From an uncultured Legionellales bacterium (GTDB lineage: Bacteria; Pseudomonadota; Gammaproteobacteria; Eutrophobiales; Eutrophobiaceae), in contig CAJWQR010000004.1 of assembly GCA_913045195.1 (NCBI GenBank), forward strand, positions 1-63,883: a stretch of DNA of 63,883 nt, written 5' to 3'. The position numbers and the translations under genes were made by a program. This document shows positions 32,658 through 50,557 of this stretch, piece by piece. Numbering within the stretch: the stretch's first letter is position 1; each line of letters opens with the position of its first letter. The notes under the pieces are model-generated. The model searched no databases. It saw nothing but the letters and a program-made list of their open reading frames with translations, and was not told the DNA's origin.

Positions 32658-33071
32658 GTGAAAAAAATTCTATTTTTGATAATTTTATCAATCTCAAATT
32701 GGGCATATGCTGATTTATATGTATGTTCAATAGTCAATGTAGCTGGCTTGAATGACAATGGATATTTCGTTACTCATGGCTGGAAAGGAAATTATGTAAA
32801 GAGGCAATTTACTATTGATAATGAGTCTGGAAGTATTCTGAATACAACGGCTCTAAAAACTAGACTAAGTAATGGCGACAAGGATAATAAACCGGTTGTT
32901 ATCTCTACGAATAAAGATGATAACTCACTAAAAATTTTCACACATTTTAAAAACGATGGAACTTACGCATTATTTCAAATGAATGATTTTGATAAGGAGA
33001 GTATTGATAAACCCTATTTCTACCACACAGAAATTGGTATGATTTTATCTGGTACTTGCAAAATTAAATAA
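32658..33071 (+). CDS. small secreted hypothetical protein
   Basis: GTG start and signal peptide KKILFLIILSISNWAYA. I recognise no family. Confidence 0.45.
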   Translation: MKKILFLIILSISNWAYADLYVCSIVNVAGLNDNGYFVTHGWKGNYVKRQFTIDNESGSILNTTALKTRLSNGDKDNKPVVISTNKDDNSLKIFTHFKNDGTYALFQMNDFDKESIDKPYFYHTEIGMILSGTCKIK

Positions 33072-33098
33072 ATAGTTATGCTATAGCGCTTGAAACAC

Positions 33099-33878
33099 TT
33101 ACTTATTGTAACCGCATAGGGCGTGTAGCGCATCTTTGTCTTTAATTGATAATATCTTTTTATCTACATCTAGTAATTCAGTTCTCTTAAATTTAGTGAA
33201 AACACGGCTCACCGTTTCAACTGCAAGACCTAAGTAATTACCTATTTCCTGCCTAGACATTGGTAAATTAAATACTGTAGATGAGTAACCAAGCTTTGCA
33301 AATCGATTAGATAAACTCATTATGAATATTGCTAGCTTTTCATCAGCCGTTCTTTTGCTAAGCGTAAGGATCAAATCATGCTCAGTTGATATTTCATCGC
33401 TTAGTAATCTGAACATTTGATCTTGAAATTCGGGTATTTCCGCGCAAATTAAACTCATTTTTTCGAAAGGTAATTTACAATACGATAATGTTTCGAGTGC
33501 TATTGCATAGCATATGTATTTTTCCTTGTTTATGGCATCAAAACCAATAACTTCGCCGGGGAAATAAAAACCTATAATTTGTTCTTCGCCATTTTTATCG
33601 AGAACATATACCTTTACTGAACCAGTACGAATTGCAAATAATGACTTAAAATCATCACCAGGAAGATATAAGTGATTGCCTTTTGCTATAGGGGGAGAAT
33701 TTTTAATAATATAATCAAGTTTATCTAAATTCTCTTTTTTCAAACCTCGCGGCAAACATAACTCACTTAAACTGCAGGTTACACAAGAAACCCTAGGACT
33801 TCTAAAAATACTTCTTCCAGCAATTTCCTTTGTATTTTCTTTTGTTATCGTCATTATGCAAGATTCCATTTTTGGCAA
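33099..33878 (-). CDS. fnr: oxygen-sensing CRP/FNR-family regulator (Fnr/Anr type)
   Basis: The N-terminal cluster C-x2-C-x5-C (SCVTCSLSELC) and a central Cys in ALETLSYCKLPF align with E. coli FNR C20/C23/C29/C122. It has a cNMP-like barrel and the recognition helix ETVSR (the E--SR motif that reads TTGAT). The true start is probably an internal ATG (MESC...). Confidence 0.9.
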   Translation of the reverse strand: MPKMESCIMTITKENTKEIAGRSIFRSPRVSCVTCSLSELCLPRGLKKENLDKLDYIIKNSPPIAKGNHLYLPGDDFKSLFAIRTGSVKVYVLDKNGEEQIIGFYFPGEVIGFDAINKEKYICYAIALETLSYCKLPFEKMSLICAEIPEFQDQMFRLLSDEISTEHDLILTLSKRTADEKLAIFIMSLSNRFAKLGYSSTVFNLPMSRQEIGNYLGLAVETVSRVFTKFKRTELLDVDKKILSIKDKDALHALCGYNK

Positions 33879-33952
33879 AATAGATTGAGTATGTTTTAAC
33901 CTATTTCATTTCTCTTAAACGTCCAAATCTACTGAAATTATCCTTTTCCCAA

Positions 33953-33966
33953 TTGATCTAGATCAA
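33953..33966. promoter_or_regulatory. FNR box A, TTGATCTAGATCAA (perfect), upstream of fnr
   Basis: It matches TTGAT-N4-ATCAA exactly and lies within the 18-bp palindrome AATTGATCTAGATCAATT. It sits about 75-90 nt upstream of the fnr start candidates. Confidence 0.7.
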
Positions 33967-34106
33967 TTATTGGGGAGGTAATTATATAACCAAGCAAAAA
34001 TAGCGCCACCGAAAGCACCGTTTATATAGTGAAATACAGGGGATGGCAGACGCTTTTTAGCAAGCCTCCTAAAATCTTGAAAATTGTGGCAGTTTGTCAG
34101 TCTCAT
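33963..34106 (-). pseudogene. possible N-terminal remnant of an FMN-dependent alpha-hydroxy-acid (L-lactate) dehydrogenase gene
   Basis: MRLTNCHNFQDFRRLAKKRLPSPVFHYINGAFGGA resembles the LldD/glycolate oxidase N-terminus (DYR..A..RLP...FHYMDGGA). The reading frame then stops about 15 codons later, with no rest of the gene. Confidence 0.3.
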
Positions 34107-34265
34107 AATAGTTATTGTAGTGTAAATAAGTATTAAATTTATTGTTATCAACCTAACATATCAAGATATGCCTACCCAATTCGTAAAATTAAAATAACAA
34201 TATACATAAATAAAGTAATAATACTATAAGATACTGATTATAATAGTTTTTTTTTATTTGTCGTC

Positions 34266-34279
34266 TTGATTAAGATCAA
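34266..34279. promoter_or_regulatory. FNR box B, TTGATTAAGATCAA (perfect), promoter of the 34371-40110 operon
   Basis: The consensus match is perfect. TATATT at 34302-34307 sits where the -10 of a class II FNR promoter is expected (box centre about -41.5). The ATG lies about 57 nt downstream of the implied TSS, and GGGAGG precedes the ATG. Confidence 0.7.
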
Positions 34280-34370
34280 ATTGCTAAGAATACAAATCCT
34301 ATATATTTACCCTTTAATCTAGCATCAGAAGAAAGTGATTTAAATTTAATGCGCAAACGGGAGGTATAAA

Positions 34371-36059
34371 ATGGCGTCCATTACTCACCTCACGAAACCG
34401 CAACGTTGGGATTCTCCTTATGATCCTGAAATGAGTGAAAAAGATGTTGCGTGGCTCATGGATCAACCCGAAATTATTACTCTTGATGCCGAAGCTTACC
34501 CCGAGCACACACCGCTAAAGGGTATTCTTAAAAATGACACGCGACTCCTACATTATAAAGTTGGTGACATCATCGTTCGAGAAGGTGATTATGGAAATTC
34601 AGCATTCTTAATTTTAAGCGGTAGAGTACGGATTTTTGCTGATAGTTACCCAAGCCTCCTATTAGGGCGTGATAAAAGTACAAAAAAGGGATTCCTTGAT
34701 ACGATAAGTCAAATCTGGACCAACTCGAAAATTCCCGAAGCCCGAGATACAAATAGCTACAAAGCACAGACAGTATGTGATGATCAAAAAATAAAAAATT
34801 ATAAATACAGCACTACAAACCGAATTTTTATCGAAGATATTTCTGAAGTTTTAAAAAAGTTCCATACCATTGAAAAAGGTAAGAGTGAATTATTTGGAGA
34901 ATTGGCTGCGCTTGGTAGAGTTCCTAGAACCGCAACCGTGTTTGCCGAAACTGAGACAACACTTTTAGAAATACGTTGGCAAGGGATCCGGGAAATTCGA
35001 CGATACAATGAAGCCTTTAGACACACAATTGATCAGTGTTATCGGGAAAATGCACTAACCATTCATCTACGCGAAACAGAACTTTTTTCTGAGCTTGACG
35101 AAAATACTTTAAGCAAAATTGCTAATGAAACATTATTTGAAACCTATGGAGGATTTGATTGGTATATTAGTTTTCAGCGCCTGCGCTCTTCTGGTCAATG
35201 GGGTGTCGAACACGAACCAGTGATTGCTCAACAGAATGATTATGCAGACGGCTTGTTGATGATCCGCGCCGGATTTGCACGTGTATCCATTGAATACGGA
35301 AGCGGTCAACGCACCCTTACTTATCTCAGCTCGGGTGATACTTTTGGTTATGAAGAACTTTTTGCTACCTGGGAAAGTGGTAGTCCAGTAAATCTTAAAG
35401 CTTCCTTGACTGCGCTCGGTTACGTGGATGTCCTGCGCGTACCGGGGCGAATCTTAGAGGAATACGTCTTTCCTAAAATTAAATCTTTAGCGTCTATAAA
35501 AACTGAGGCTAATACTAAAACTTTAGTAGATGATGCAATGCTAGAATGGGCGGTAGAAGAACGCTTTATTAACGCCACTAAATCCATGTTAATTGACCTT
35601 AATCGTTGCGTTCGTTGTGATGATTGTGTTCGTGCATGTGCCTCAACACATAATGGAAATCCTCGCTTTATTCGTCATGGTAAAACTTTTAATCATTGGA
35701 TGGTGGTAAATGCATGTATGCATTGTTCTGATCCAGTTTGCATGATTGGTTGTCCTACCGGAGGCATCTATCGTAACGAAATTGATGGAACTGTTGTTAT
35801 CAATGATGATGTTTGTATTGGTTGCTCAAACTGTGCCACAGCATGTCCCTACAACAATATTCAAATGGTTAAAATTAGGAGTGAATCGGGTGAAGAATTA
35901 TTCGATCGCGAAACAAACAAACCAATTCTCAAAGCAACAAAATGTGATCTCTGTTCGACAACTCCAGGCGGTCCTGCCTGTGTGCGCGCCTGCTCACACG
36001 ATGCTCTGAGTCGTGTTGATTTTCGTCGGGAAATGTTTGTGGATGATGATACATTATGA
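34371..36059 (+). CDS. cytoplasmic fusion protein: two cyclic-nucleotide-binding domains plus a DmsB/NrfC-type four-cluster [4Fe-4S] ferredoxin domain
   Basis: cNMP motifs are GDIIVREGDYGNSAFLILSGRVRIF...ELFGELAALGRVPRTATVFA, plus a second, more divergent barrel. Sixteen Cys fall in four motifs: CVRCDDCVRAC, CMHCSDPVCMIGCP, CIGCSNCATACP and CDLCSTTPGGPACVRAC (aa 413-541). There is no signal or Tat motif. Confidence 0.8.
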   Translation: MASITHLTKPQRWDSPYDPEMSEKDVAWLMDQPEIITLDAEAYPEHTPLKGILKNDTRLLHYKVGDIIVREGDYGNSAFLILSGRVRIFADSYPSLLLGRDKSTKKGFLDTISQIWTNSKIPEARDTNSYKAQTVCDDQKIKNYKYSTTNRIFIEDISEVLKKFHTIEKGKSELFGELAALGRVPRTATVFAETETTLLEIRWQGIREIRRYNEAFRHTIDQCYRENALTIHLRETELFSELDENTLSKIANETLFETYGGFDWYISFQRLRSSGQWGVEHEPVIAQQNDYADGLLMIRAGFARVSIEYGSGQRTLTYLSSGDTFGYEELFATWESGSPVNLKASLTALGYVDVLRVPGRILEEYVFPKIKSLASIKTEANTKTLVDDAMLEWAVEERFINATKSMLIDLNRCVRCDDCVRACASTHNGNPRFIRHGKTFNHWMVVNACMHCSDPVCMIGCPTGGIYRNEIDGTVVINDDVCIGCSNCATACPYNNIQMVKIRSESGEELFDRETNKPILKATKCDLCSTTPGGPACVRACSHDALSRVDFRREMFVDDDTL

Positions 36060-36874
36060 ATTCCATCCGTATGTATCACATTTTAATTTGGCTGATTGCT
36101 GGAATCATCTTTGGTTTATTAGCAATTAAAGATCAATCAATTCATGCGCGCCTTGGAAATCCAAGTGAACTGACTGGTTATTGCTTGCTCGTAACTATAG
36201 TCTTCTTGGCGTTTTTTAATATTCGTAAACGTTTATCAATGTTACCAATGATCGGTAAAGCTTCAACTTGGTTTATGCTGCATACCGTGGGTGGTTTTTT
36301 TGTTTTGGCTGTTTATTGGCTTCATACAAAGACAATTTGGCCTACAGGTATGTATGAAAAATCTCTGGCTATTTTATTTTACCTTACTGTGACTAGTGGG
36401 ATCATTGGTTACCTTATTCAGCAGATCTATCCAAAACTTTTGACACAAACTGGCGTTGAAGTCATTTTTGAACGTATCCCTCTCCGTATAAGCAAACTAC
36501 GTCAAAAAGCTGAAGAAACGATGCTTAAGTGTTGCAATAAAAGTGGAGTAGAAACACTTGGCAAACACTATCTGGATACATTGCAGTGGTTTTTCGCAGA
36601 ACCTAGATTTACATTTCAACACCTGATCGGTAGTCAACGCAGCCAGCAATGGATTCAGCATCAAGATAATGCAGTTCGCCGTTATCTTAATATAGATGAA
36701 CAAAAGTATCTTAATGAACTGAGTCAGCTCGCTTATCAAAAAAATATTATTGATATTCATTATACCTTGCAGGGTGCGATGAAATGCTGGCTACTTATAC
36801 ATATTCCACTAACCTCAGCATTAATGTTGCTGTCCTTTTGGCATTTTCTCGTTGTTAACGTGTACGCGTTATGA
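36056..36874 (+). CDS. 5-TM integral membrane protein with two H-x13-H pairs (putative diheme b-type cytochrome)
   Basis: 272 aa. TM3 is FMLHTVGGFFVLAVYWLHT (H76/H90) and TM5 is WLLIHIPLTSALMLLSFWHFLV (H249/H263). It has 4-nt ATGA overlaps with both neighbours. I recognise no family. Confidence 0.6.
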   Translation: MNSIRMYHILIWLIAGIIFGLLAIKDQSIHARLGNPSELTGYCLLVTIVFLAFFNIRKRLSMLPMIGKASTWFMLHTVGGFFVLAVYWLHTKTIWPTGMYEKSLAILFYLTVTSGIIGYLIQQIYPKLLTQTGVEVIFERIPLRISKLRQKAEETMLKCCNKSGVETLGKHYLDTLQWFFAEPRFTFQHLIGSQRSQQWIQHQDNAVRRYLNIDEQKYLNELSQLAYQKNIIDIHYTLQGAMKCWLLIHIPLTSALMLLSFWHFLVVNVYAL

Positions 36875-38796
36875 CAGAGAAAAATCATTCTGATTTTGAT
36901 CAAAGTGCTTACGAAAGACCAAGCAACAAATATATATGTGGACGAGCTGCTGAATGGGGGGTGCCTTGCAGAGCCGGTCCTAATTTCGATGGCACGTGTG
37001 GATGTGTCGCCGAGTGCGAACCTTTCTTTGTAAATGGGCGTTGGGAATGTCGCCGACCTCAGGTTGATGGAGGTCCTTGTAAAAACGGGCCGAGCCCTGA
37101 GGGTATTTGTGGTTGTACACAATCGCCATGCGTACCACGACGTACAATGCGTTGGTATCGTGGTAGATTATCAATCATCGCTGCAGGAATTATAGTTGCA
37201 TTGCTTGCTGCTTTTACTCATCTTTCCAACGAGAAAAATATTTTTTCAGATGGCTTTCGAATTGGCGCGTTAGATGCCGGAGAATTGACGGACGGACATA
37301 CCGGATTCTTTGAAACGTTAGAGTGTAAAACCTGCCATACAGCACACGAATCAAAACTAACAACATGGTTAATGGCTGTTATCACTGATAGTGATGTTGC
37401 TATAACTAAGGCCTGCGTTAACTGTCATTTATTCGAGGGGGAAGCAACATCGCCGCATAATGCAGTTTTTCCTGCCGATAAAAATATTATAAAAACCGAA
37501 TGCACTATATGCCATAACGAACATAAAGGAGTTAGTGCTGATATTTCTAGTTTAAGTGACGAACAATGTGCATCTTGTCATGAAAAAAAGTTTACTAATT
37601 TTAGTACAGGTCATTCTGATTTTTCGGAAGAATTCCCATATTTTAGACGCACAGCGATCAACTTTGATCACACAACACATCTTACGAAATACTTTCAAGA
37701 TGAGCGTATGAAAAAAGATAAGCGTAAACCCGAAGACGCTCCTGCCGAATGTATAACCTGTCACCAAAACGAATCCGAAGAACGTAACATTAAGCCTCTG
37801 GGTTATGAAAAAATCTGTGCTACTTGTCACACTAACCAAATTCTAAAACGTAAATTAGTGTTTCTACGTTTACCAGAATTCAACGAACCTGATATTGATC
37901 GTGAAGTCGCCATCGAGCTTTGTGGTCCGAATGAAGACGCAGAAGATGAGAACGCTGAAGATTATGAAAGTGTTTCGGTCGACGAGATGAGTGTTATTAC
38001 TTCTTATCTAATGGGTCTAACACCTGATGATCCAGAAAAATATAGTAAAGCTTTTCAAAACTTGATGTTAGGAATGATGGAAGACGGGATATCGCCATTA
38101 ATTGAAATGCTTGAAGAAAACGGGGTTAGACTTAATGCAAATCAATTATTAACTGGACTTAATCCCGAAGCAGCAAAACGCATGGCTTGTGCCTGGGCTA
38201 TGAACTTAGAATACGAGCTCCCTGCCAGTCCTGCTTTTGGTGGATGGTATGGAGATCTTCTTGAATTTATTTACCAACCAAACGGCCATGCCGACATTGT
38301 TATTAAAAGGTGGCTGGATTTTGCGGTTATCGCGGGAGGAGATAATGAAGAGATGATTGAGCGGGCAGAGGTAATGAGGGAATATTTATTGTCAAAAAAA
38401 GATGGGCCTGGAGCTTGCGTAAAATGTCACGCCATTACGCGTGATAAAAAAGAAGGGAAACTACGTATCGAATGGCAATACCATCAAAATGAAAACAGTA
38501 GTTATCAATCTTTTTCTCACCAACGCCATCTCCGTCTTGTCGATCCACAGGGTGTTAAGCTTTCTGATCCCAATCAAGGTTGCGCTAAGTGTCACAAACT
38601 TAATGCTGATGCTGCATATGATTCAAGCTTCGAAGATTATAATCCGATGACATATTCAAGTAACTTTATTTCAATAGAAAAGAAAACTTGTAGTCAATGT
38701 CATGCCAAAGGTCGAATTCGAGAAGATTGTCAGCTCTGTCATAACTACCATAAGGGTTTCGATTTTACTGATCGCGTAACCAGAAATAAAAATTAA
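36871..38796 (+). CDS. inner-membrane-anchored multiheme cytochrome c (10 CxxCH) with an N-terminal cytoplasmic Cys-rich domain
   Basis: 641 aa. The N-terminal 90 aa contain 10 Cys, followed by RRTMRWYRGR and a TM segment (LSIIAAGIIVALLAAF). After that come CKTCH, CVNCH, CTICH, CASCH, CITCH, CATCH, CVKCH, CAKCH, CSQCH and CQLCH. Confidence 0.85.
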   Translation: MTEKNHSDFDQSAYERPSNKYICGRAAEWGVPCRAGPNFDGTCGCVAECEPFFVNGRWECRRPQVDGGPCKNGPSPEGICGCTQSPCVPRRTMRWYRGRLSIIAAGIIVALLAAFTHLSNEKNIFSDGFRIGALDAGELTDGHTGFFETLECKTCHTAHESKLTTWLMAVITDSDVAITKACVNCHLFEGEATSPHNAVFPADKNIIKTECTICHNEHKGVSADISSLSDEQCASCHEKKFTNFSTGHSDFSEEFPYFRRTAINFDHTTHLTKYFQDERMKKDKRKPEDAPAECITCHQNESEERNIKPLGYEKICATCHTNQILKRKLVFLRLPEFNEPDIDREVAIELCGPNEDAEDENAEDYESVSVDEMSVITSYLMGLTPDDPEKYSKAFQNLMLGMMEDGISPLIEMLEENGVRLNANQLLTGLNPEAAKRMACAWAMNLEYELPASPAFGGWYGDLLEFIYQPNGHADIVIKRWLDFAVIAGGDNEEMIERAEVMREYLLSKKDGPGACVKCHAITRDKKEGKLRIEWQYHQNENSSYQSFSHQRHLRLVDPQGVKLSDPNQGCAKCHKLNADAAYDSSFEDYNPMTYSSNFISIEKKTCSQCHAKGRIREDCQLCHNYHKGFDFTDRVTRNKN

Positions 38797-38832
38797 ATAT
38801 CAATATTGTTTATGTAAGACCGGGAGTTAAAA

Positions 38833-40110
38833 ATGGAAATAGATATGCTAATTGATTTATCCGTTATCTCATTTTTAGGGATGTTAACGATCTATATCGG
38901 TAACTGGATCTTAATTAACAATCGACGATCCACTTGGACACGTCGTAATTATGAGATGAATCGACAGCGTTTACAGATCGAGATCGATCTCATTACCGAT
39001 CGTCGAAAAGTTGAGCAAAAAAAATCTGATCATTCCTGGAACGGTTTTCGTAAATTTGAGATCAGTGATAAAGTAAAGGAGGCAAAAGGTATTTTTTCCT
39101 TCTACCTGAAACCACATGATCGTAAACCCTTACCACCATTCGAGCCAGGCCAATTCCTTACTTTTAATCTTCATATTCCGGGCCAAAAAAAACCCGTCAT
39201 TCGATGTTATTCATTATCTGATAGCCCTAATCATCCTGATTACTATCGTGTGACAATTAAGCGTGAACCACCACATAATAAACCAAACATTTTGCCTGGA
39301 TTAGCCTCTAGCTTCTTTCATGATCAATTAAAAATTGGTGATATCGTCGATGTCAAAGCACCGTCAGGACACTTTTTCTTAGATATGTCTTCACACAAAC
39401 CTATTGTATTAATTGGTGGTGGAATTGGTTTAACGCCTGGTCTTAGTATGCTCAATTCCGTCATTGAATCTGGATCACTACGCGAAACACATTTCTTCTA
39501 CGGTGTTCGAAATGGTAAATATCATGCTTTCAAAAAACATTTACAAAAAACTACTCTGGAAAATGAAAACATCCATCTTCATGTCTGTTATTCTGAAGCA
39601 GGTGAAGATGACATAATAGATAAGGATTATCATTATGGTGAAAAAATTAGTGTTGATTTATTAAAACAGCATCTTAAATCCAGTAATTATGAATTCTATC
39701 TTTGCGGACCACCGTCGATGATGGGATCCCTTGTTGAGGAACTTGAAGCCTGGAATGTTCCAGTTAACAGTATTCATTTTGAAGCTTTCGGTCCGGCTAC
39801 GGTCAAAAAAACATCAACTGAAGATAATAAAAAAAGTGTTTCTGGTGCTGAAACTGTCAATGTTAAGTTTGCGCGTTCTAACAAAACAACATCATGGGAT
39901 GCAACTCAAGGATCTATTCTAGAACTTGCCGAAGCAAATGGCATTGTAAATATTATAGCTGGTTGTCGCGCTGGAAATTGTGATAGCTGTATTACGGCAA
40001 TCATGGACGGCGAGGTCAAATATCTTAATCCTCCAGGCTCACCGGCAGAAGATGGGTCCTGTCACACATGTATTTCAGTACCAAAATCAGACATAGTGAT
40101 CGATGCTTAG
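38833..40110 (+). CDS. membrane-anchored ferredoxin-NAD(P)H reductase-like flavoprotein with a C-terminal plant-type [2Fe-2S] domain
   Basis: It has an N-terminal TM segment followed by an RR-rich stretch. Motifs present are FAD RCYSLS, NAD(P)H GGGIGLTP, LCGPPSMM, and C-x4-C-x2-C (CRAGNCDSC) with a distal CHTC. Confidence 0.8.
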   Translation: MEIDMLIDLSVISFLGMLTIYIGNWILINNRRSTWTRRNYEMNRQRLQIEIDLITDRRKVEQKKSDHSWNGFRKFEISDKVKEAKGIFSFYLKPHDRKPLPPFEPGQFLTFNLHIPGQKKPVIRCYSLSDSPNHPDYYRVTIKREPPHNKPNILPGLASSFFHDQLKIGDIVDVKAPSGHFFLDMSSHKPIVLIGGGIGLTPGLSMLNSVIESGSLRETHFFYGVRNGKYHAFKKHLQKTTLENENIHLHVCYSEAGEDDIIDKDYHYGEKISVDLLKQHLKSSNYEFYLCGPPSMMGSLVEELEAWNVPVNSIHFEAFGPATVKKTSTEDNKKSVSGAETVNVKFARSNKTTSWDATQGSILELAEANGIVNIIAGCRAGNCDSCITAIMDGEVKYLNPPGSPAEDGSCHTCISVPKSDIVIDA

Positions 40111-40216
40111 TAATGAATAACAACTCTTGCTTGTCAACAAAACACAGATCTTAATGTAATTTTATACATCAGATATGATGAAATTATTTAGGCACTCACT
40201 AAAATAGGTAAAATAA

Positions 40217-41155
40217 TTAGCATTGTTTTAGGTTTTCCTCGTCTGGACCTGCGCAAGGAATCAGCTTACCAACCAAGCCTGAAAGATCCTTTTCCTTGAT
40301 CGCTTTCATCATTTCACGAGCATTAGTGTCACTTGGTGATTTAATTAGTGCTGCTGCCTCAGGTATAACTTTCAAGATTGCCGCAGCATCAGAAACACGT
40401 TTCAATTGTTCTTCTTTGTATTTTTCATTCTTAGCTTCGGATGCTGCTCTACTGGCGGAAACTAATTTTGCAGCCTGTCCTGCGATAAACAAATTAGCTA
40501 ATTGAGCCTTGGAACGTTTATCTTCCCAGTGACTCATTTTGCCTTGAGAAAACATAACAATCTCAAAGGAATGATTAATTGGGTGTTCCGCTTCTAACAT
40601 TTTACCGAATGCCTCTTCATTGATCTCTTGCCGCGCTAAACCATGACATTTCGCACAATTAACGGCAAGGTCATAATGCATTGAAGCCCAAATTAACCCG
40701 CCAGCAGTAGAATCATTAATCCGTTTGACTTTATGATCTTGAGCCTCTTGTTCTTTCTTAACTTTTTTTCCACCGTAATCAGAGTGAACTGATTCCCAGT
40801 CTGACGAGGCACCGTGACAATTTTCACAGGATGGACCATTCTTTACTTTGGGTTTGTCGTCAGCCTTTTTCTGTTTTGTTGAATAGTGGCAAATAATGCA
40901 ATCTTTGTTCCGTTTCATTCCCTTCTTAGTGCCCACAGCTTCGGCAATTTTCTTCGCATTTTTCTCTTTATGTGCCGTGCGATAGGATGTGAAGTGCTTG
41001 GTTTTCTCCCAAGATTTATATATATCCTCGTGACATTCCTCGCAACTTTCTGGGCCCTGATAATAAGGTTCAGCGATTACAATTGGTATGTGTACGAATG
41101 TTGCAACGAGTATAGTAAATAAAAATAATGTATGTCTGGTTATTGAAACAGGCAT
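40217..41155 (-). CDS. secreted tetraheme cytochrome c (c554-like N-terminal part, helical C-terminal part)
   Basis: It has a signal peptide. The four heme motifs are CEECH, CIICH, CENCH and CAKCH. Confidence 0.8.
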   Translation of the reverse strand: MPVSITRHTLFLFTILVATFVHIPIVIAEPYYQGPESCEECHEDIYKSWEKTKHFTSYRTAHKEKNAKKIAEAVGTKKGMKRNKDCIICHYSTKQKKADDKPKVKNGPSCENCHGASSDWESVHSDYGGKKVKKEQEAQDHKVKRINDSTAGGLIWASMHYDLAVNCAKCHGLARQEINEEAFGKMLEAEHPINHSFEIVMFSQGKMSHWEDKRSKAQLANLFIAGQAAKLVSASRAASEAKNEKYKEEQLKRVSDAAAILKVIPEAAALIKSPSDTNAREMMKAIKEKDLSGLVGKLIPCAGPDEENLKQC

Positions 41156-41175
41156 ACTTCCCTCCCCTTTTTTTT

Positions 41176-43548
41176 CTAAAAAATGAAATTTATTTTAGTC
41201 CGTATACCATATGCAGGATCACCTGTTGATTCCTGTTCAACAATAAAACCGCCGACTTCAAAAAAGACATGTTGTCCTAATGCATGTGAATAGCGTACTG
41301 CTCCACCATAACGATTGACTGTGCTTGAGGAATTATCAATTTTTCCGCCAACCTCAAAAATAAGATTACGACGAAGCGCTGGAGAGAAAAACATTTGATA
41401 GCCAAGTGAACCGCCAAAAGCATCACTAGCAAAGTTGTTGATTGGTGCTCCAGCTAAACCATTACTAGTAAATAACAGCCCTGTAATAGATAAAGGACCA
41501 CCGGCACTACGAGCTGCCGTTGCATAATCACCGAATGCTTTAAACGCATTCAAATACAAAATATTATCAGTCCTTTTTGGCGCGAAGGAAAAACTGGTAT
41601 AGAGTAAAGTTCCATCAGTTGCATGTGCATTCTCATTATCTGGTGTATATGAATGGAGAAAGCGAAATTGTGTATCAACGTCGTGTTCAAATAAAATAAA
41701 GGGGCGAAGCATACTAACCCCGAAATTTACCTGGTCACTATTAGTATCAGTGGTATCAATATAAGTTGCATCGATTTCAAACGTTGAATGAGCAACATCG
41801 ATTGCCGAAAAGATGCCGTATAATTCGGCACGGTCATCATCAACATTATTACTACGATCAATGTTACCAAAAGCAAAAAACCCACCAATTCGTGCAAAAT
41901 TAGTTCCGCTAAAAGGAATTGTGCTTCTAGTGACGGCAAATGAATCCATTGTATCGTTAATCAGCATACCACCTTGAACAATAACAGGTTGACGTCCAAA
42001 AGCGATTTCATAATCGAGTGGTAACCGACCATCCATATCAAGCTTCGGAAACATTTCAGATAATTCACCCTCAAAAAAGGCGGTAGTCAACCGAACGTTA
42101 TGATTGTTAATATATCCACTATCACCGGGTGAAAATGAATACTCTGACTTAGCCCCGTTTTCACGTGTCAACGGAGAGACGCCGACCAAAATCCGTTCGG
42201 TACCGCTGAGAGTTAAATTCAGAAAAAGGTCCATTGTCGTAACCCATGCTGAATCGACATCATTAACACCATCATCGGTAACCTCTAGTCCGGTATTAAG
42301 ATTACCAAATAATAATAAGCCTGGTGAAACAACCATTCCAGTAGGTAGTTCGAACTCATAGGCGTACGGACCTTGATTTACATAGTCCTGCCATAATTCG
42401 AAAAATGGTTCTGGGCGTTGCGGTAAATCTTGTTGTTCTTTGAGTGTAATCATCTCATCTGAGTAACGCGAACTGCTTTCGTTGAGTTTTGTATTCTCAT
42501 AAGTGGATTCTTCTTTTGTATTCTCTCCTTCTCTTTCCTCTGTGGATACCGCTTCCGCAGAATCTAAAGCGCTCTCCTCAGTGGTTTCTAATTCCACTAC
42601 CAGATATTGTTCTTCTTCTAACAGGATACTGTCTTTCTTCTGGGTTCTTATATCTGGCGTTTCCTCTTGGATTTTTGCCTCTAGTGTTTTCTCTTGTGCT
42701 ATTAACCACTGGTCTTCAATCCTCTGCATCGAGATAAGTTTTCTGACATCATCACTATAATTATCAGACTGATAGTTTTGTTTAAACTCAACATCGGCAT
42801 AATCTTCTCCGTGTATTTTGATCTTTGTGTCAGTAAGTGTAACTTTTATAAAACGAGGAGAAAGTATTCGTTTATGACGTTGTTTTTCCCATTTTCTTCG
42901 ACTTAACTTTTTTGGCGGGACAAAACTTTCTGCATAAGCTGCAAGATAAGCATCAATGTTTTGGGCAGACCAAACATTTGACCAATGATTTAATGCTTCT
43001 TCGATAGTTTCATTGACTGGAATAACTTCTTTTTCAATCGATACAACATTTTCTTTAATATCTCTGGAGATAGTATCTGGTGCTTTCTTTTGGGTTATTA
43101 AATTTTCAGTTTCTGTGTTATTAGTTGCGATTACTTTTTCTTTAACAATCAACCATTGCTCATCAACTTTCTGCATTGATAGTCGTTTCTTGACTTCATC
43201 AGTATAAGTATCTGATTGGTAATTTTGTGTAAACTCAACATCTGCATAATTTTCTTCATACTGATTTATCTTTAAATCAGATAAGACTACCTTGATATAA
43301 CTTGGTGTTAGCAGTCTTATCTTTCTCTCACTCTCCCATGCTTTGCGGCTTTTTCCTTTTGGAGGGGTAAATTGCTCAGCATAACTATCAAGGTAGAGAT
43401 CAACTTTTTGTGAAGACCAGGCTTTTGTCCAATTGTTTACTGAAGACTCAATGTCGGCATATGCAAATTGTATACAAGTAAAAAAAACAAGGGTGCTAAA
43501 AAATATTGGGGTACTTATTTTTTTTATTTGATGATTGATTAAAAACAT
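41176..43548 (-). CDS. secreted 790-aa protein: two tandem NTF2/SnoaL-like domains, an acidic linker, and a C-terminal outer-membrane beta-barrel-like domain
   Basis: It has a signal peptide (FFSTLVFFTCIQFAYA). Repeats aa 38-139 and 187-288 are about 55% identical by hand alignment. The C-terminal ~415 aa show alternating amphipathic strands and end ...YGIRTKINFIF (terminal Phe, as in OMPs). There is no CxxCH. Confidence 0.6.
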   Translation of the reverse strand: MFLINHQIKKISTPIFFSTLVFFTCIQFAYADIESSVNNWTKAWSSQKVDLYLDSYAEQFTPPKGKSRKAWESERKIRLLTPSYIKVVLSDLKINQYEENYADVEFTQNYQSDTYTDEVKKRLSMQKVDEQWLIVKEKVIATNNTETENLITQKKAPDTISRDIKENVVSIEKEVIPVNETIEEALNHWSNVWSAQNIDAYLAAYAESFVPPKKLSRRKWEKQRHKRILSPRFIKVTLTDTKIKIHGEDYADVEFKQNYQSDNYSDDVRKLISMQRIEDQWLIAQEKTLEAKIQEETPDIRTQKKDSILLEEEQYLVVELETTEESALDSAEAVSTEEREGENTKEESTYENTKLNESSSRYSDEMITLKEQQDLPQRPEPFFELWQDYVNQGPYAYEFELPTGMVVSPGLLLFGNLNTGLEVTDDGVNDVDSAWVTTMDLFLNLTLSGTERILVGVSPLTRENGAKSEYSFSPGDSGYINNHNVRLTTAFFEGELSEMFPKLDMDGRLPLDYEIAFGRQPVIVQGGMLINDTMDSFAVTRSTIPFSGTNFARIGGFFAFGNIDRSNNVDDDRAELYGIFSAIDVAHSTFEIDATYIDTTDTNSDQVNFGVSMLRPFILFEHDVDTQFRFLHSYTPDNENAHATDGTLLYTSFSFAPKRTDNILYLNAFKAFGDYATAARSAGGPLSITGLLFTSNGLAGAPINNFASDAFGGSLGYQMFFSPALRRNLIFEVGGKIDNSSSTVNRYGGAVRYSHALGQHVFFEVGGFIVEQESTGDPAYGIRTKINFIF

Positions 43549-43552
43549 TTTT

Positions 43553-45424
43553 TTACCTTTTAATCTTAACTGTTTCCGTGGTTTCCCATAAATTTATACT
43601 TAGATCGACTACCCGTTTCGCCAACTCACGTAAAGAGAAGTTATAATCAAGCCCCACTTGGGAATTGACGTGTATAAAGTAGCCCGGCAACTGTTGGGCA
43701 ATCAACTTCATACTTATCGTATAGGTCTCATCCGATTTTAATAAATCTGGATCAATGGAATATTTTGCCCATCGATATCCACCTGGCTCGATACTATTTT
43801 TCTTTGTGCGAACCATGTTTGGACGCATATGTATTGCGGTCGGATTTGGTGGTGGGCGAATAAATGGCCGTGTCGTCTGTGAGAAATTTATAAATCGTAT
43901 TTGAGTACGTTCACCACCCCAAAAAGTCCCAACCATAAAATGACTCATCAAATTAAATAATTGTTTGTCGTATTTTAATTCGCCGTTGCGAACATATCGG
44001 GAGTATCTTTCGCGGAGGTCACCGTTTGGGTCGCGATCACCAGACTTAAAAACAACATTACCTTGACTATCCTTTACCGTGATCTGGAAAAATACCATTC
44101 GTTCGTGAATAAAACCCGATGGCGCATTATGACCCAACACGGCATTTCTAAGTTTAATGCGGAACTTTAAGCCGTCCTTTATATTCGAATCGTCGATAAC
44201 TACATCTTCGACCTTATAACCAGCTTTCATTACTGCATCTCTTTGACCCTTTGCCCAATTAAGTAACTCGAACTGTTCATCTAAGATTTCACGAGCCTCG
44301 TAACGCAAGTCCTGATCCTGCCAAAATTCCGGAAATTTATTATCATCGGTAACATTGTCCTCGAACTCATCTGTACCCCAGCCTTTTTTGTGTTCAAATT
44401 CCATCCATTGCTCATAAGTTGCTAACTCCACTGCATCTGGATTATGTGGAAAGATACCGGGATGCAGTACCGAAAAATCCGGACCTGCAAAATAATGATT
44501 CGACAAACGCCGATGTTTGGTCTCAACCTTACCTACTATCGCGGCTGGACCTTTATCAAACCCCTTATTTTCACCCGGGACCTTACCCATATGGCAATCT
44601 TGGCAAGTTACGCCATCGGCTGCTGACTTCGAGGTTCTATACTCATCGAAAGTTTCCTCATTATGAAAGCCAGTTGGTAATCTGGAAGCATGACAATTAC
44701 CACAAAATCTTGAGGCTCTTAGAAAAGGATATTCCTCAACTCGTTTATGAATTGCTCGTCCTTTCTTGCCAGGTTCAGTTACCAAAGACAGTCTGGAGTC
44801 TTGTTCAGCCTCTGCTTGAATTTCGTTATTGGTTGGCCCGAAAATAGGACTAAAAATATCGCCTTCAGTAATCATTGCACGGGCACTTCGCTTACCATAT
44901 TTTTTATCAAACCGATGGCAAACAACGCAAGTTACACCTTCAACTACTGGCCCCAAAAAATCCTCCCCTTCACGAGCAAATTGTGCTCGTTTCAGATTGG
45001 AAATTTGCATAAGTCCAAGTACAGCAGCAATTGGTGCATGGCAACGGGAACAAGTATCAGCCGAGGTACCGTTAGACTTGCCTAAGACTGAATTTTCTAC
45101 CGAAACAAAAAAGGGACTTAGATTGCCATAGGCATGACTTGATGCTGACCATTGACGAAATTGAACTGGATGACAAACCTTACATTCAAAGGCTGAAGGA
45201 AATCGCTTATTTTGAAACAAATCCTCGTGCGCCTTATCGACAACCTCTTCTGCCTCGACAACCTCTTCTGCCTCGACAACCTCTTCTGCCTCGACAACCT
45301 CTTCTGCCTCGACAACCTCTTCTGCCTCGACCGAACCGGCAACTAATATCGCCAACGACAGAAGCATTGCAGCAACAAAATCAGATTCACATATTTTTAG
45401 CCTTTTAAAACAAAGACATAACAC
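43553..45424 (-). CDS. secreted pentaheme cytochrome c with an N-terminal (EEVVEA)n repeat
   Basis: GTG start preceded by GGGAGGG, with a signal-like N-terminus. The five heme motifs are CKVCH, CSRCH, CVVCH, CGNCH and CQDCH. The large C-terminal half has no heme motifs. Confidence 0.8.
   Translation of the reverse strand: MLCLCFKRLKICESDFVAAMLLSLAILVAGSVEAEEVVEAEEVVEAEEVVEAEEVVEAEEVVDKAHEDLFQNKRFPSAFECKVCHPVQFRQWSASSHAYGNLSPFFVSVENSVLGKSNGTSADTCSRCHAPIAAVLGLMQISNLKRAQFAREGEDFLGPVVEGVTCVVCHRFDKKYGKRSARAMITEGDIFSPIFGPTNNEIQAEAEQDSRLSLVTEPGKKGRAIHKRVEEYPFLRASRFCGNCHASRLPTGFHNEETFDEYRTSKSAADGVTCQDCHMGKVPGENKGFDKGPAAIVGKVETKHRRLSNHYFAGPDFSVLHPGIFPHNPDAVELATYEQWMEFEHKKGWGTDEFEDNVTDDNKFPEFWQDQDLRYEAREILDEQFELLNWAKGQRDAVMKAGYKVEDVVIDDSNIKDGLKFRIKLRNAVLGHNAPSGFIHERMVFFQITVKDSQGNVVFKSGDRDPNGDLRERYSRYVRNGELKYDKQLFNLMSHFMVGTFWGGERTQIRFINFSQTTRPFIRPPPNPTAIHMRPNMVRTKKNSIEPGGYRWAKYSIDPDLLKSDETYTISMKLIAQQLPGYFIHVNSQVGLDYNFSLRELAKRVVDLSINLWETTETVKIKR
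45238..45331. repeat. perfect 18-bp tandem repeat, 5.2 copies (CGACAACCTCTTCTGCCT on the + strand)
   Basis: Copies are identical at 45238, 45256, 45274, 45292 and 45310, plus a partial sixth. The repeat is in frame and encodes EEVVEA x5 just after the signal peptide of the pentaheme cytochrome. Confidence 0.95.
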
Positions 45425-45521
45425 ACCATCCCTCCCACCTCAACAGAAACCATCGAGCCCGAAAATATGAAGCCGCCTTTATAAGTGAAATTTACTTTAC
45501 AAGAACTTATTTGCTTGAGAA

Positions 45522-45535
45522 TTGATTCTAGTCAA
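45522..45535. promoter_or_regulatory. FNR box C, TTGATTCTAGTCAA (1 mismatch), promoter of the 45424-40217 operon
   Basis: It lies about 100 nt upstream of the GTG start. TAAAGT on the minus strand sits near the expected -10 position. Confidence 0.55.
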
Positions 45536-45659
45536 GTTAACAGAAGATAATATGTGCGATTTCTTGTACAAAACAAAAAATATGGGGTAAATAACAACCA
45601 TTATTATTTAAATTTCTTCAGGTATATCAGGTATATAGAAAATTAAGGAAATGCGGGTT

Positions 45660-46760
45660 TTAGTCTTCAATGGCAGTTAATTTATTCAATATTACACGCT
45701 TAACAGGCCAAATATTATTAGCAAGTTTTAGGATTATTTTCCTTAAAAATCTTGCTTTAGATGTTTCATTTGTATACAAACAAACAATTCCATTCGTTGC
45801 CAAATATAATGGATATGATACTCGTCTGTGTATGGATTGATAATTTGTTAATACACTAGGGTAACCAATATCTATTTTCTTCTCTAAAGCATTTTTTATT
45901 TCTTTTGCTAGTGCATTTTGTCCTTTAAGACCAAGATTAAATCCATGGGCCGTTACAGGATGCATCCCAACAGCAGCATCTCCAATTAATGCAAAACGTG
46001 TTGACACAAATCTATTCGCATATACTGCAATAAGTGGATAAGCGAAACGTTTGCTTATTAGTTTCATATTGCCTAGACGAAATTTAAATTGTGCTGAGAC
46101 TTCTTTATTAAATTTATTCTCGGCAATATTTAATATTTTGTTGTGTTGATTTGAAGGAGCCGTTATGACAATAGAAGATTGATTTTCTGTCAGCGGTAAA
46201 ACTGCTAGTGTTCTTCCGTAATAAAAACACTCATAAGCAATATCAAAATGAGGTTCTTCATGTTGCATTCGACATACGACACAAATTTGTCCAAAATCTA
46301 GCGTTCTGGCAGATATTCCTTCGCCACGACGAGTCTCAGAAAAACGACTATCGGCCGCAATAATTAAACGTGTTTCGATTATTTTACCATTTGATAAGGT
46401 AATAGTAGCTGCTTCTGGATTTCTATTTATTGATGTAACGGTAGTATCGGTAATTAATTCAATGTTAGAGAAATTTTTAATTTCATCATAATACGCCTTC
46501 CGTATTAAGTGATTAGAAATTAAATAACCCAATTCATCGCAACCTGCCTTGCGATGATCAAAATGTAAGAAATATGGTGAATAACCATTAAGAACTCTTG
46601 CTTCTTTTATAGGGGATTTAGAGATATTTGGAATTCTTCCCCACACACCAGCCTCTTTTAATAATTTAACTGAGAAATGTGTTAATGCAATATCTCGACC
46701 ATCATACTCAGGGTCTGCTAAGATATTTTCATTTAATTTCTCCACTATCGAAATATTCAA
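45660..46760 (-). CDS. FAD-dependent monooxygenase, UbiH/UbiF/VisC (COQ6) family; the N-terminus is unresolved
   Basis: It contains the family motifs ...LIGDAAVGMHPVTAHGFNLG.... The track start is a TTG. The 27 in-frame codons upstream (to 46841) encode DITIIGAGPAGLSFARSLA, the expected Rossmann GxGxxG, but contain no ATG, GTG or TTG. Confidence 0.8.
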   Translation of the reverse strand: MNISIVEKLNENILADPEYDGRDIALTHFSVKLLKEAGVWGRIPNISKSPIKEARVLNGYSPYFLHFDHRKAGCDELGYLISNHLIRKAYYDEIKNFSNIELITDTTVTSINRNPEAATITLSNGKIIETRLIIAADSRFSETRRGEGISARTLDFGQICVVCRMQHEEPHFDIAYECFYYGRTLAVLPLTENQSSIVITAPSNQHNKILNIAENKFNKEVSAQFKFRLGNMKLISKRFAYPLIAVYANRFVSTRFALIGDAAVGMHPVTAHGFNLGLKGQNALAKEIKNALEKKIDIGYPSVLTNYQSIHRRVSYPLYLATNGIVCLYTNETSKARFLRKIILKLANNIWPVKRVILNKLTAIED

Positions 46761-47319: not shown

Positions 47320-47934
47320 TTATCCAAGCCAATTCTTTGTGGCCATAATCAATCTCTCTAAGTCTTTCAGTATATTTTCACTGCTTATTCCATGTGAATA
47401 ATGCATCATAAGATTTCCTTTCGGATCAATTAAATAAATTCCGTTATTATTTATTTCTTCAAAGTTGGCAAAATTAGAAACAAAATCACTAAAGAAAGGC
47501 TGTGCTTCTGTAATAATAACCATCTTTGGATACTTTGAAATTGTCTTCAAATATTCATCTGTAATAGTTGTTCCGCTCAAAACTAATATTCTTTGCAAAT
47601 AACGCATATCCTCGCCTAGTGCGAGTCGAATTTGATTAAAATCATATATATCTTGCTGACAAGTTTTACTGCAATTACCTTCATTCAATTTAACAAGAGT
47701 CCACAAACCATCAAGATTTAACGCTGGAAATTCACGCTCATCTATGGTCTTAAGATTTTCAAATCTTACAGGATGTTGCGGGTTGATGAGTTCGCCTTGA
47801 TTTACTTGTTGTTTTGGTAAAAAATCAGGATGATTATAAAAAAACCATGATGCGGTCATTGGGAATGCGCATATTACAATTAAAATCCATAATTCAAATC
47901 TGAATTTATTGTTTTTTGTCTGATATTCGTTCAT
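47320..47934 (-). CDS. membrane-anchored thioredoxin-fold/SCO-like protein of the cox assembly cluster (hypothetical)
   Basis: It has an N-terminal TM segment and a CSKTC (C-x3-C) motif in a context resembling SCO copper chaperones. It overlaps the SURF1 gene by 4 nt. Confidence 0.45.
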   Translation of the reverse strand: MNEYQTKNNKFRFELWILIVICAFPMTASWFFYNHPDFLPKQQVNQGELINPQHPVRFENLKTIDEREFPALNLDGLWTLVKLNEGNCSKTCQQDIYDFNQIRLALGEDMRYLQRILVLSGTTITDEYLKTISKYPKMVIITEAQPFFSDFVSNFANFEEINNNGIYLIDPKGNLMMHYSHGISSENILKDLERLIMATKNWLG

Positions 47935-48674
47935 TGATTTATCCTTGTTGTATTATTTTTTTGAACAATAGATAACCCTAAATAAACTAAAATAGTAATA
48001 ACGGCAAAGACAAACCACTGTATTGCATAACCTATATGCATAAAATATTTTGCATTAAACGCTGGCCATTGACGGATAAAACTATTCTGATCTTCGGGTG
48101 ATTGCTGTATAAAAAATGGTAAAACCTTAGCATCATGTTGTGCAGTATAATAATCTATATCGAGGAATGGCCAGCGCTCACCCCAATCACGCTCAATATC
48201 AGTAGAAGGCAATTTTATAAATGGTGGGGGCGTAGAAAAAACGATGGTGCCATTAACTTTTATTTTTCCTTTGGGTGTATAAACAGCTGGTAATTTTTCT
48301 CCATTTCCATCCATTTTAACCCAACCTCTGTTTACAAAAACCTGTAAATTCTCTGTGCCATCAATCAATAATGGGGTTAGCACTTCATAGCCGATATCAT
48401 TTTGATATTTCTTTCCATCAAGATAAATATTATTTTCGTATAGATATTTTCCACTAACAATAGCTTTGCGAAAACGATATTTAGGTTTTGAATCTTCTAC
48501 TTCATTAAGAATTAATGGCGGTAAATTACTGGAGTATTTTATCTCTTCTTCAATTTTTTGTTTCTCGCTTGCACGATATAACTGCCAGAAGCCTAATTTA
48601 ACAAACACACCTACGAGTATTAACATAACTATAATTAGCGTCACATTTATTCGAAAATAATAACGATCAAACAT
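47931..48674 (-). CDS. SURF1-family cytochrome oxidase assembly protein
   Basis: 247 aa with two terminal TM helices. The N-terminal LGFWQLYRASEK signature is present, and the gene sits in the cox operon. Confidence 0.8.
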   Translation of the reverse strand: MFDRYYFRINVTLIIVMLILVGVFVKLGFWQLYRASEKQKIEEEIKYSSNLPPLILNEVEDSKPKYRFRKAIVSGKYLYENNIYLDGKKYQNDIGYEVLTPLLIDGTENLQVFVNRGWVKMDGNGEKLPAVYTPKGKIKVNGTIVFSTPPPFIKLPSTDIERDWGERWPFLDIDYYTAQHDAKVLPFFIQQSPEDQNSFIRQWPAFNAKYFMHIGYAIQWFVFAVITILVYLGLSIVQKNNTTRINQ

Positions 48675-48747
48675 TAAAATATATCTAATCCAATATATAC
48701 AAGCGTTACTAGAAAAATATACTTAAAGAGATGTTTGCCTGCATTGG

Positions 48748-48957
48748 CTAGGAGGGCGAAATGATGCCAAAGAAAGCTCCTCCAATTAGTAGAATAAACA
48801 AAATTAGTGCAAGTGTTACTCGTTTTGATAATGCTTGCACGACTCTTGTTTTATCCTTATCGCCATGGTCTTTTGTTAAATAGTACATTGCTTCCACAAG
48901 GGCAAATACAACCAACAATAATATTATGAGCGCAGGTAGCTTAAAAGTTAGTGTCAT
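48748..48957 (-). CDS. small two-TM membrane protein of the cox cluster (DUF2909-like)
   Basis: 69 aa with two hydrophobic helices. It lies between coxC and SURF1, as in other gammaproteobacterial aa3 clusters. Confidence 0.4.
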   Translation of the reverse strand: MTLTFKLPALIILLLVVFALVEAMYYLTKDHGDKDKTRVVQALSKRVTLALILFILLIGGAFFGIISPS

Positions 48958-50555: not shown

Positions 50556-50557
50556 CT

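Follow-up and report, generated by a model that had tools for sequence, protein, structure and literature searches.

A ptd gene cluster whose PtdE joins tandem cyclic-nucleotide-binding domains to a four-cluster ferredoxin: a candidate gated electron wire

The closest described system to the one analysed here is the gene cluster ptdABCDEFG, which was found in metagenome-assembled genomes (MAGs) of the alphaproteobacterial order UBA11136 and named after its penta-, tetra- and decahaem proteins (bioRxiv 10.1101/2023.11.21.568154). In that preprint PtdE was given two 4Fe-4S clusters, PtdF was called ferric reductase-like and PtdB a porin, and the cluster was reported to be transcribed in an oxygen-deficient zone and to occur also in nitrite oxidisers. 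A literature search for another name or characterisation of the system turned up only this one preprint. Here we describe the gene ptdE and its neighbours in an uncultured Legionellales bacterium, on a stretch of 63,883 nucleotides of contig CAJWQR010000004.1 that was analysed as a whole and is called the window. The open reading frame (ORF) in question joins a cNMP-binding domain and 4Fe-4S motifs in one polypeptide, all seven ptd genes lie within 34371-45424, and the haem motif counts of 5, 4 and 10 (CXXCH) fit the preprint's penta-, tetra- and decahaem definition. By architecture and gene set, the window ORF is PtdE.

The fusion architecture and the cluster name are already known, and the family is named but biochemically uncharacterised. 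The original prediction for this ORF, made from the sequence alone, had stated that it would be refuted by a common, characterised family with a known non-regulatory role; the family proved to be common and to carry a name, but it has not been characterised. New in our analysis are the four clusters, the strong conservation of the phosphate-binding cassette (PBC), natural PtdE-PtdF fusions, variants with FHA domains and predicted class II FNR boxes before both arms of the cluster. Also new are the lack of support for a ferric reductase-like PtdF and a putative di-haem partner without a known fold relative.

We propose, with moderate confidence, that PtdE has two roles in the Ptd complex: in the cytoplasm it conducts electrons from NAD(P)H to a transmembrane di-haem protein, and it is the point of regulatory input. 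In this scheme NAD(P)H would give its electrons to the membrane-anchored PtdC, where they would pass FAD and a [2Fe-2S] cluster, and PtdE would relay them through its four [4Fe-4S] clusters to PtdF. Two b-type haems on the H-x13-H pairs of PtdF would carry them over the inner membrane to the ten c-haems of PtdG. From there the periplasmic tetrahaem PtdD would pass them on to PtdA, a pentahaem protein, and PtdB, the putative porin, at the outer membrane. The most likely ligand of the first cyclic-nucleotide-binding (CNB) domain, CNB-A, would be cAMP or cGMP. The second domain, CNB-B, and an insertion of ~70 aa would pass the ligand signal on, and docking of the Fe-S module on its partners, or transfer to them, would change. 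This route leaves out the quinone pool and would therefore serve, without conserving energy, as an outlet for electrons or as the supply of a reductase, and because an uncontrolled path would drain reducing power, there would be a rationale for a ligand-gated Fe-S subunit. Outward flow is favoured because, with typical midpoint potentials, electrons would run downhill that way and the membrane potential would assist them. A more far-reaching form of the proposal, which we regard as tentative and possible rather than probable, is a quinone-independent route to the cell surface, on which electrons from NAD(P)H would pass a flavin, five Fe-S clusters, a transmembrane di-haem protein of a new type and 19 c-haems; a cyclic nucleotide bound to PtdE would switch the flux, which would make Ptd the first electron wire under second-messenger control.

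The C-terminal module of PtdE carries four Cys groups exactly as the original prediction had claimed, at residues 413/416/419/423 (CX2CX2CX3C), 449/452/457/461 (CX2CX4CX3CP), 482/485/488/492 (CX2CX2CX3CP) and 525/528/537/541 (CX2CX8CX3C). Conservation in PtdE was assessed in a close set of 95 homologues with 56-92% identity and in a distant set of 150 representatives, each with <50% identity. In close and distant homologues together, 16/16 of the cluster Cys were conserved at 92-100%. This pattern means four predicted [4Fe-4S] clusters in PtdE, compared with two in the preprint. Pfam matches to Fer4_7, Fer4_9, Fer4_10 and Fer4_11 were obtained. The nearest solved relatives of the module were HycB3/HycB4 (7qv7, E values of 1.6e-22 and 2e-18), ArrB (6cz7) and HycB (7z0s), and HycB3 and HycB4 of HDCR and HycB of formate hydrogenlyase outscored NrfC, NarH and FdnH. 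The NCBIfam models of DmsB, DsrO, HydN, HybA, NrfC and the AegA N-terminus scored only 44-67 bits against cut-offs of 200-1003, and PtdE therefore belongs to none of these curated families. Neither a Tat (twin-arginine) motif nor a signal peptide was found in PtdE, in agreement with the original prediction, and the protein is taken to be cytoplasmic. Since the nearest relatives are cytoplasmic wire ferredoxins, a missing Tat signal is normal for this branch of the fold, and the earlier comparison with Tat-exported subunits was not the appropriate one.

The N-terminal part of PtdE, which begins at an ATG preceded by the ribosome-binding site GGGAGG, matched the Pfam family cNMP_binding (PF00027) with 83.5 bits at a cut-off of 27.5, spread over three stretches. 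The fold of CNB-A and CNB-B together matched the tandem CNB domains of PKG I-beta and of PKA regulatory subunits (Foldseek, E ~1e-14), which upholds the tandem cNMP-binding-type domains of the original prediction. Trypanosome PKA-R, which is cAMP-independent and nucleoside-bound, was also among the fold matches. A reading of PtdE as a CRP/FNR-type transcription factor was rejected, as Pfam gave no HTH_Crp_2 or Crp match, that is, no helix-turn-helix.

The cassette of CNB-A is canonical, with a Glu177-to-Arg186 spacing of 9 as in PKA, PKG and HCN. In the close set F175, G176, A179, A180, G182, R183, P185 and R186 were invariant and E177 was present in at least 90%. In the distant set G176 was found in 138/140, E177 in 118/140 and R186 in 122/141 of the representatives, and the T/S at 187 and A188 were kept as well in relatives below 50% identity, with PBC conservation of 87-99% among the distant relatives. 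The alignment check thus bore out the clear cassette claimed for the first domain, with its Arg and Gly residues aligned and strongly conserved. CNB-A follows the ligand-competent cassette pattern G-E-x-A-L-(x4)-P-R-[ST]-A at a spacing of 9, whereas CNB-B does not. In the N-terminal half of CNB-A, G72, D73, Y74, G75, S77 and A78 were invariant or near-invariant. The Arg-Thr pair of the cassette resembles that of PKG and CNG channels, but it is also found in cAMP-binding bacterial domains. On these conserved residues, cyclic-nucleotide gating of PtdE is plausible.

The first barrel is interrupted between beta4 and beta5, where the gap is ~77 aa in PtdE CNB-A and ~6 aa in PKG. An insertion of ~80 aa had been expected here, and the PKG alignment places it at ~70 aa. 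It contains a conserved helix and the motif QxWTN..IPE.RD., and its residues E123, R125 and D156 were invariant among the 95 close homologues. In the distant representatives E123 was kept in 99/109 and R125 in 101/115.

Natural PtdE-PtdF fusions were found in three independent representatives, P0124, P0127 and P0147. PtdF aligned to the C-terminal extensions of P0127 and P0147 with E=2e-35 and 3e-38, respectively, and the P0127 locus has no separate ptdF, with a PtdG-like gene following the fusion. These fusions suggest a physical contact between PtdE and PtdF. In other variants FHA domains were added, with two N-terminal FHA domains on the PtdE of P0125, in a full ptd context, and an internal FHA domain in P0242. 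Since signalling modules (PBC and FHA) accumulate on this subunit, PtdE would be the control point, and the proposed cyclic-nucleotide gating is strengthened by the occurrence of FHA domains on the same subunit elsewhere.

In PtdF, all 83 orthologues had H76, H90, H249 and H263 (100%), and the same four residues did not vary among 35 database homologues. The pairs H76/H90 and H249/H263 lie on helices 3 and 5, with the His of each pair 13 residues apart, which fits the ferric reductase/NOX pattern of two bis-His pairs, 12-14 residues apart, on two transmembrane helices. Because the PtdE-PtdF fusions fix the topology, the N-terminus of PtdF should be cytoplasmic. With this topology and the helix pattern, H76 and H249 come to lie near the cytoplasmic side of the membrane and H90 and H263 near the periplasmic side. 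From this geometry we infer a two-haem transmembrane conduit, and PtdF seems to represent a kind of putative di-haem membrane protein that has not been described before. The ferric reductase-like label was dropped, since Pfam, PDB sequence and fold searches all gave no support for it. The PtdF model also shows a cytoplasmic helical domain of ~115 aa between helices 4 and 5.

The partners of PtdE were examined by fetching 87 other ptdE loci and counting the partner genes in each. PtdF was present in 85/87 and PtdG in 84/87, with the misses falling at contig ends; PtdD was present in 79/87, PtdC in 71/87, PtdA in 66/87 and the putative porin in 53/87. The minimal conserved core is E-F-G, mostly with C. 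In the window the genes form two convergent arms, EFGC (+) and ABD (-), and ATGA overlaps were observed at both ptdE/ptdF and ptdF/ptdG, by which ptdE is translationally coupled to ptdF and ptdG. The original prediction had noted the absence of a catalytic partner. Neither a molybdopterin catalytic subunit nor an NrfD/DmsC-type membrane subunit was found in the ptd cluster, but with two coupled partners that recur in nearly all loci the statement cannot be kept. The FAD/NAD part of PtdC, the presumed electron input, was nearest to flavohaemoglobin reductase and the full-length protein to phthalate dioxygenase reductase and NqrF, with a weak match to the ferric reductase NAD-binding domain. Weak matches to MtrC/MtrF domain II/IV were found in both PtdG and PtdA.

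Several observations weigh against the proposal that PtdE is a ligand-gated wire to PtdF. In the PtdE structure model both the insertion and the Fe-S module had a predicted local distance difference test score (pLDDT) of <50, and for this reason no PtdE domain interface was modelled and the model was used for the CNB fold only; for the insertion, such low model confidence would be expected where a segment folds only against a partner. CNB-B is without a canonical PBC, its cassette being nine residues longer and its conserved Glu standing 18, not 9, residues from position 347. That position (nt 35409-35411) is Thr in the clade of the window protein and Arg in 99/143 of the wider family, and this clade may have lost a second site that is perhaps functional in other lineages. 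CNB-B alone gave no match in the PDB at E<=1. No cyclase or phosphodiesterase gene was seen adjoining the ptd cluster within the window. For PtdF, Pfam gave no match at E<=1, a profile search against the PDB gave nothing better than E=0.7, and a fold search of the model (pLDDT 82) against the PDB gave a best E of 0.57 and no NOX or ferric reductase domain (FRD) structure; with no relative from any of these searches, the predicted haem binding is read from the His pattern. PtdC was absent within 10 kb in a few long loci, e.g. L027, and may therefore not be the sole donor. The direction of electron flow is deduced from typical potentials and the membrane potential, each step of the mechanism is a proposal built on sequence, and the function of ptd was described as "completely unknown" in the preprint (bioRxiv 10.1101/2023.11.21.568154).

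Some of these points would be explained by the same complex and wire with cNMP domains that are ligand-free and serve as a scaffold, a dimerisation element or a docking adaptor on PtdF, PtdG or PtdC. The degenerate cassette of CNB-B and the lack of a cyclase or phosphodiesterase near the cluster fit such a role, the large conserved insertion that is disordered in the model suggests a protein-protein interface, and pseudo-receptor CNB domains exist, the cAMP-independent trypanosome PKA-R among the fold matches being an example. However, the known non-binding CNB domains lose the Arg and Glu of the cassette, whereas PtdE keeps G176, E177, R186, T/S187 and A188 at the canonical spacing. Scaffolding alone is hard to reconcile with cassette residues and spacing that are kept even below 50% identity, and we consider it a serious but unlikely alternative. 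The ligand of CNB-A could also be something else than a 3',5'-cyclic mononucleotide, for instance a cyclic dinucleotide, a nucleoside or another phosphorylated metabolite, in which case the domain would report the metabolic state and not that of a second messenger. Barrels of the CRP/FNR and PKA kinds have been turned to the binding of haem, 2-oxoglutarate and nucleosides, the nucleoside-bound trypanosome protein matched here being one such case, and the insertion sits between beta4 and beta5, a region next to the base-binding side in other CNB proteins. The intact Gly-Glu...Arg-Thr-Ala cassette at canonical spacing is specific for a ribose cyclic phosphate, however, and makes a different ligand improbable.

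The remaining alternatives concern the electron path rather than the ligand. Porin-cytochrome systems can work in either direction, and the Ptd complex might run inwards, from external or periplasmic donors through the cytochromes, PtdF and PtdE to NAD(P)+ via PtdC. Among the carriers of the cluster are chemolithoautotrophs dependent on reverse electron flow: Nitrospinota and, according to the preprint, nitrite oxidisers. Electron transfer from c-haems to low-potential [4Fe-4S] clusters and NAD(P)+ on the negative cytoplasmic side would, however, be uphill both in redox and electrically, and no energy-coupling subunit, NrfD-like or ion-translocating, is present in the cluster; we therefore assign inward flow a low probability. 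Signalling domains joined to Fe-S clusters, as in FNR-type sensors, and the FHA domains of some variants are what one would see if PtdE were mainly a redox or oxygen sensor whose clusters and CNB domains control the rest of the complex rather than carry bulk flux. Such a role is very improbable, since four clusters in a DmsB/HycB arrangement make a dedicated long-range wire, no path from PtdC to PtdF would be evident without PtdE, and in the PtdE-PtdF fusions the wire is attached to the membrane carrier itself. The idea of an orphan ferredoxin wire, a rare fusion with no partner, has nothing in its favour beyond the lack of a molybdopterin-type catalytic subunit in the cluster; the conserved translationally coupled partners refute it, and the thousands of homologues and the prior description as PtdE also speak against it. 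The reading of PtdE as a wire to PtdF with a cyclic-nucleotide input is the one we retain.

The promoter regions suggest when the cluster would be expressed (Table 1). At ptdE, the centre of the perfect box TTGATTAAGATCAA lies 29.5 bp upstream of the TATATT hexamer, and the transcription start is predicted near 34314, 57 nt before the ATG. The sigma-70 promoter scan did not flag this promoter, as is expected of an activator-dependent promoter without a -35 element, and the geometry was judged by hand. FNR control, on which the original prediction had placed the ligand control, is plausible in view of the perfect box and the TATATT in front of ptdE, and with the box TTGACTAGAATCAA upstream of ptdA the whole ptd cluster appears to be switched on by FNR under low oxygen in this gammaproteobacterium. 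The fnr product has the HTH_Crp_2 and Crp Pfam matches. The fnr gene adjoined ptdE in 0/87 of the other loci, and its wiring to ptdE is thus local to the lineage of the window. In the whole window 38 TTGAT-N4-ATCAA boxes with up to 1 mismatch were observed compared with 8.6 expected, and the window thus contains many probable FNR-regulon promoters. Perfect boxes lie at 33953, 34266, 47265, 54279 and 56986, some of them close to accessory genes of the aa3 oxidase, to the region of OmpW and hemN and to a gene for a TonB-dependent receptor. An Rfam scan of 33000-46000 gave no riboswitch or other RNA.

Table 1. Features of the ptd region, in coordinates of the window
Feature	Coordinates	Strand	Description
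ptdE	34371..36059	+	562 aa; tandem cNMP-type domains and four-[4Fe-4S] ferredoxin module; from ORF, Pfam and homologues
CNB-A, N-terminal half	34518..34646	+	aa ~50-92; beta1-beta4, GDYGNSAF motif; aligns to PKG cNMP domains
CNB-A insertion	34647..34853	+	aa ~93-161, ~70 aa; beta4-beta5 loop, family-specific
CNB-A, C-terminal half	34854..34988	+	aa ~162-206; beta5-beta8, contains the phosphate-binding cassette
Phosphate-binding cassette FGELAALGRVPRTATV	34893-34940	+	aa 175-190, in CNB-A
CNB-B	35082..35486	+	aa ~238-372; cNMP-type barrel, lengthened non-canonical cassette; best Pfam stretch 284-364
Four-cluster ferredoxin module	35583..36026	+	aa ~405-552; Fer4_11 and related Pfam matches
ptdF	36056..36874	+	272 aa; five-helix membrane protein, two invariant H-x13-H pairs; putative transmembrane di-haem b carrier
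ptdG	36871..38796	+	641 aa; decahaem cytochrome c, 10 CXXCH, one transmembrane helix at aa 100-118
ptdC	38833..40110	+	425 aa; FAD_binding_6, NAD_binding_1, C-terminal Fer2, transmembrane anchor; presumed electron input
ptdD	40217..41155	-	312 aa; periplasmic tetrahaem cytochrome, 4 CXXCH, c554-like, signal peptide
ptdB	41176..43548	-	790 aa; secreted protein, N-terminal Cds6_C NTF2-like domains; putative porin (preprint label)
ptdA	43553..45424	-	623 aa; pentahaem cytochrome, 5 CXXCH, signal peptide
fnr	33099..33878	-	Fnr-type regulator, divergent from ptdE; NCBIfam PRK11161 264.6 bits, cut-off 228
FNR box of fnr	33953-33966	.	Perfect box
FNR box TTGATTAAGATCAA	34266..34279	.	Perfect TTGAT-N4-ATCAA, centre 34272.5, ~98 bp upstream of the ptdE ATG
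TATATT -10-like hexamer	34302-34307	.	Class II (-41.5) geometry with the TTGATTAAGATCAA box
FNR-like box TTGACTAGAATCAA	45522..45535	minus-strand reading	One mismatch; TAAAGT at the matching -10 offset; upstream of ptdA

The original prediction had called the fusion unusual, which was not borne out. A word-indexed search gave 4346 PtdE homologues, and the best 120 of the 4346 were all full length with the same domain set. An exhaustive search of representatives at 50% identity gave 582 PtdE clusters at E<=1e-30, and a scan with one genome per species placed PtdE in at least 559 species across many phyla. Among the matches listed, the alphaproteobacterial carriers were Rhodospirillales, Kiloniellales, Kordiimonadales, Minwuia and Xanthobacteraceae, and the others were Gamma- and Betaproteobacteria, Nitrospinota, Verrucomicrobiota, Planctomycetota, Elusimicrobia and Poribacteria. 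PtdE is encoded in the complete genome of the isolate Kordiimonadales IMCC3096, and the ptd cluster is also present in an Omnitrophota MAG. The synteny of the cluster holds in Omnitrophota, Nitrospinota, Verrucomicrobiota, Planctomycetota and Proteobacteria. Family variants, namely PtdE-PtdF fusions, FHA-FHA-PtdE and a group with an N-terminal extension of ~340 aa without a Pfam match, were located at L088 7001-9532 and L089 7001-9565 and in the proteins P0166, P0189, P0191, P0210 and P0216.

The window PtdE was 56-70% identical to proteins of Alphaproteobacteria/Rhodospirillaceae MAGs in ptd synteny. Its nearest relatives were one protein at 92% identity, followed by alphaproteobacterial MAG proteins at 65-70%. 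The GC content was 38-40% in the cluster (34000-46000) and 31-36% in the flanks, and the surrounding genes look gammaproteobacterial, as judged by matches of Fnr, of PilMNOPQ/HofQ-type proteins and of other housekeeping proteins. This combination is compatible with horizontal acquisition of the ptd cluster.

Side observations were made on three of the cytochrome and porin genes. In PtdG, aa 23-87 (36937-37131) contain two C-x9-C-x9-C-x5/6-C repeats, and their eight Cys were 92-100% conserved in 69 orthologues. Their position, ahead of the sole transmembrane helix and following a positive-inside stretch, points to a cytoplasmic location. The repeats gave no Pfam match and could form a metal or Fe-S site, or a docking site for PtdE. 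In PtdA a tandem acidic repeat, (EEVVEA)n, was found right after the signal peptide (~45245-45322 on the minus strand, aa ~35-60). The Cds6_C NTF2-like domains of PtdB scored 99 bits, and orthologues elsewhere align only to the C-terminal ~430 aa; the putative porin may thus have gained its N-terminal part in this lineage. Directly next to the cluster are ubiM, which encodes a ubiquinone hydroxylase, and the operon and assembly genes of an aa3-type cytochrome c oxidase (45660-46760 and 47320-53316, both on the minus strand), so that aerobic and low-oxygen electron-transport genes are neighbours here.

The hosts of ptd include Nitrospinota and alphaproteobacteria that dominate transcription in a marine oxygen-deficient zone. 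If the proposal is correct, the Ptd complex would provide a route of electron export past the quinone pool, and a cyclic nucleotide on the Fe-S wire would exert direct post-translational control over a process that otherwise drains reducing power. Abundant bacteria of oxygen-poor marine and fresh waters would use such a gated route, which would matter for the cycling of iron, manganese and nitrogen at low oxygen and for bacterial redox balance. Second-messenger gating of an electron conduit is now directly testable through R186 and E177, the 16 Cys, the four His of PtdF, the predicted FNR promoter and cultured hosts.

When compared with known systems, the window locus is closest to ptdABCDEFG of the UBA11136 MAGs, which have the same seven-gene set and the same PtdE architecture. 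The window copy differs in lying on a low-GC gammaproteobacterial chromosome and in being rearranged into two convergent arms with FNR boxes before both. The N-terminal half of PtdE resembles the PKA regulatory subunits and PKG, which also have two consecutive barrels and in which the CNB-A cassette, FGE-L-A-L...P-R-T-A-T-V, has the identical Glu-Arg spacing. In PtdE, however, the effector is a four-cluster ferredoxin and not a kinase or a kinase-inhibitor segment, and the protein has the ~70 aa insertion in CNB-A and a lengthened CNB-B cassette that is without the Arg in this clade.

The Fe-S module has the same four Cys groups as HycB3/HycB4 of HDCR, HycB of formate hydrogenlyase, HydN and the AegA N-terminus, which are cytoplasmic and form a wire between modules. 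Unlike the HycB-type proteins, the module in PtdE is joined to sensor-type domains, has neither a hydrogenase nor a formate dehydrogenase as partner, and would pass its electrons to a membrane haem protein. With DmsB, NrfC, PsrB and HybA, PtdE shares the four-cluster Fer4_11 fold and the Cys spacing, but it is without their Tat signal, molybdopterin subunit and NrfD/DmsC-type quinol-interacting membrane subunit.

The proposed path as a whole follows a logic like that of NOX and MsrQ/Fre, in which electrons pass from NAD(P)H to flavin and then over two bis-His b-haems across the membrane to an outside acceptor. In Ptd, the parts are on separate proteins, and a [2Fe-2S] cluster and four [4Fe-4S] clusters would stand between flavin and haem. 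Compared with the six-helix ferric reductase domain, PtdF has five helices and the ~115 aa cytoplasmic domain, and no sequence or fold relationship was detectable. Multihaem cytochromes combined with an outer-membrane protein are found in MtrCAB, PioAB/MtoAB and the Geobacter Pcc systems as in Ptd. Those porin-cytochrome conduits work with the quinol dehydrogenases CymA, ImcH or CbcL, whereas Ptd has no quinol-oxidising subunit; its entry at the inner membrane appears to be fed by NAD(P)H via Fe-S clusters and carries a domain of the second-messenger type.

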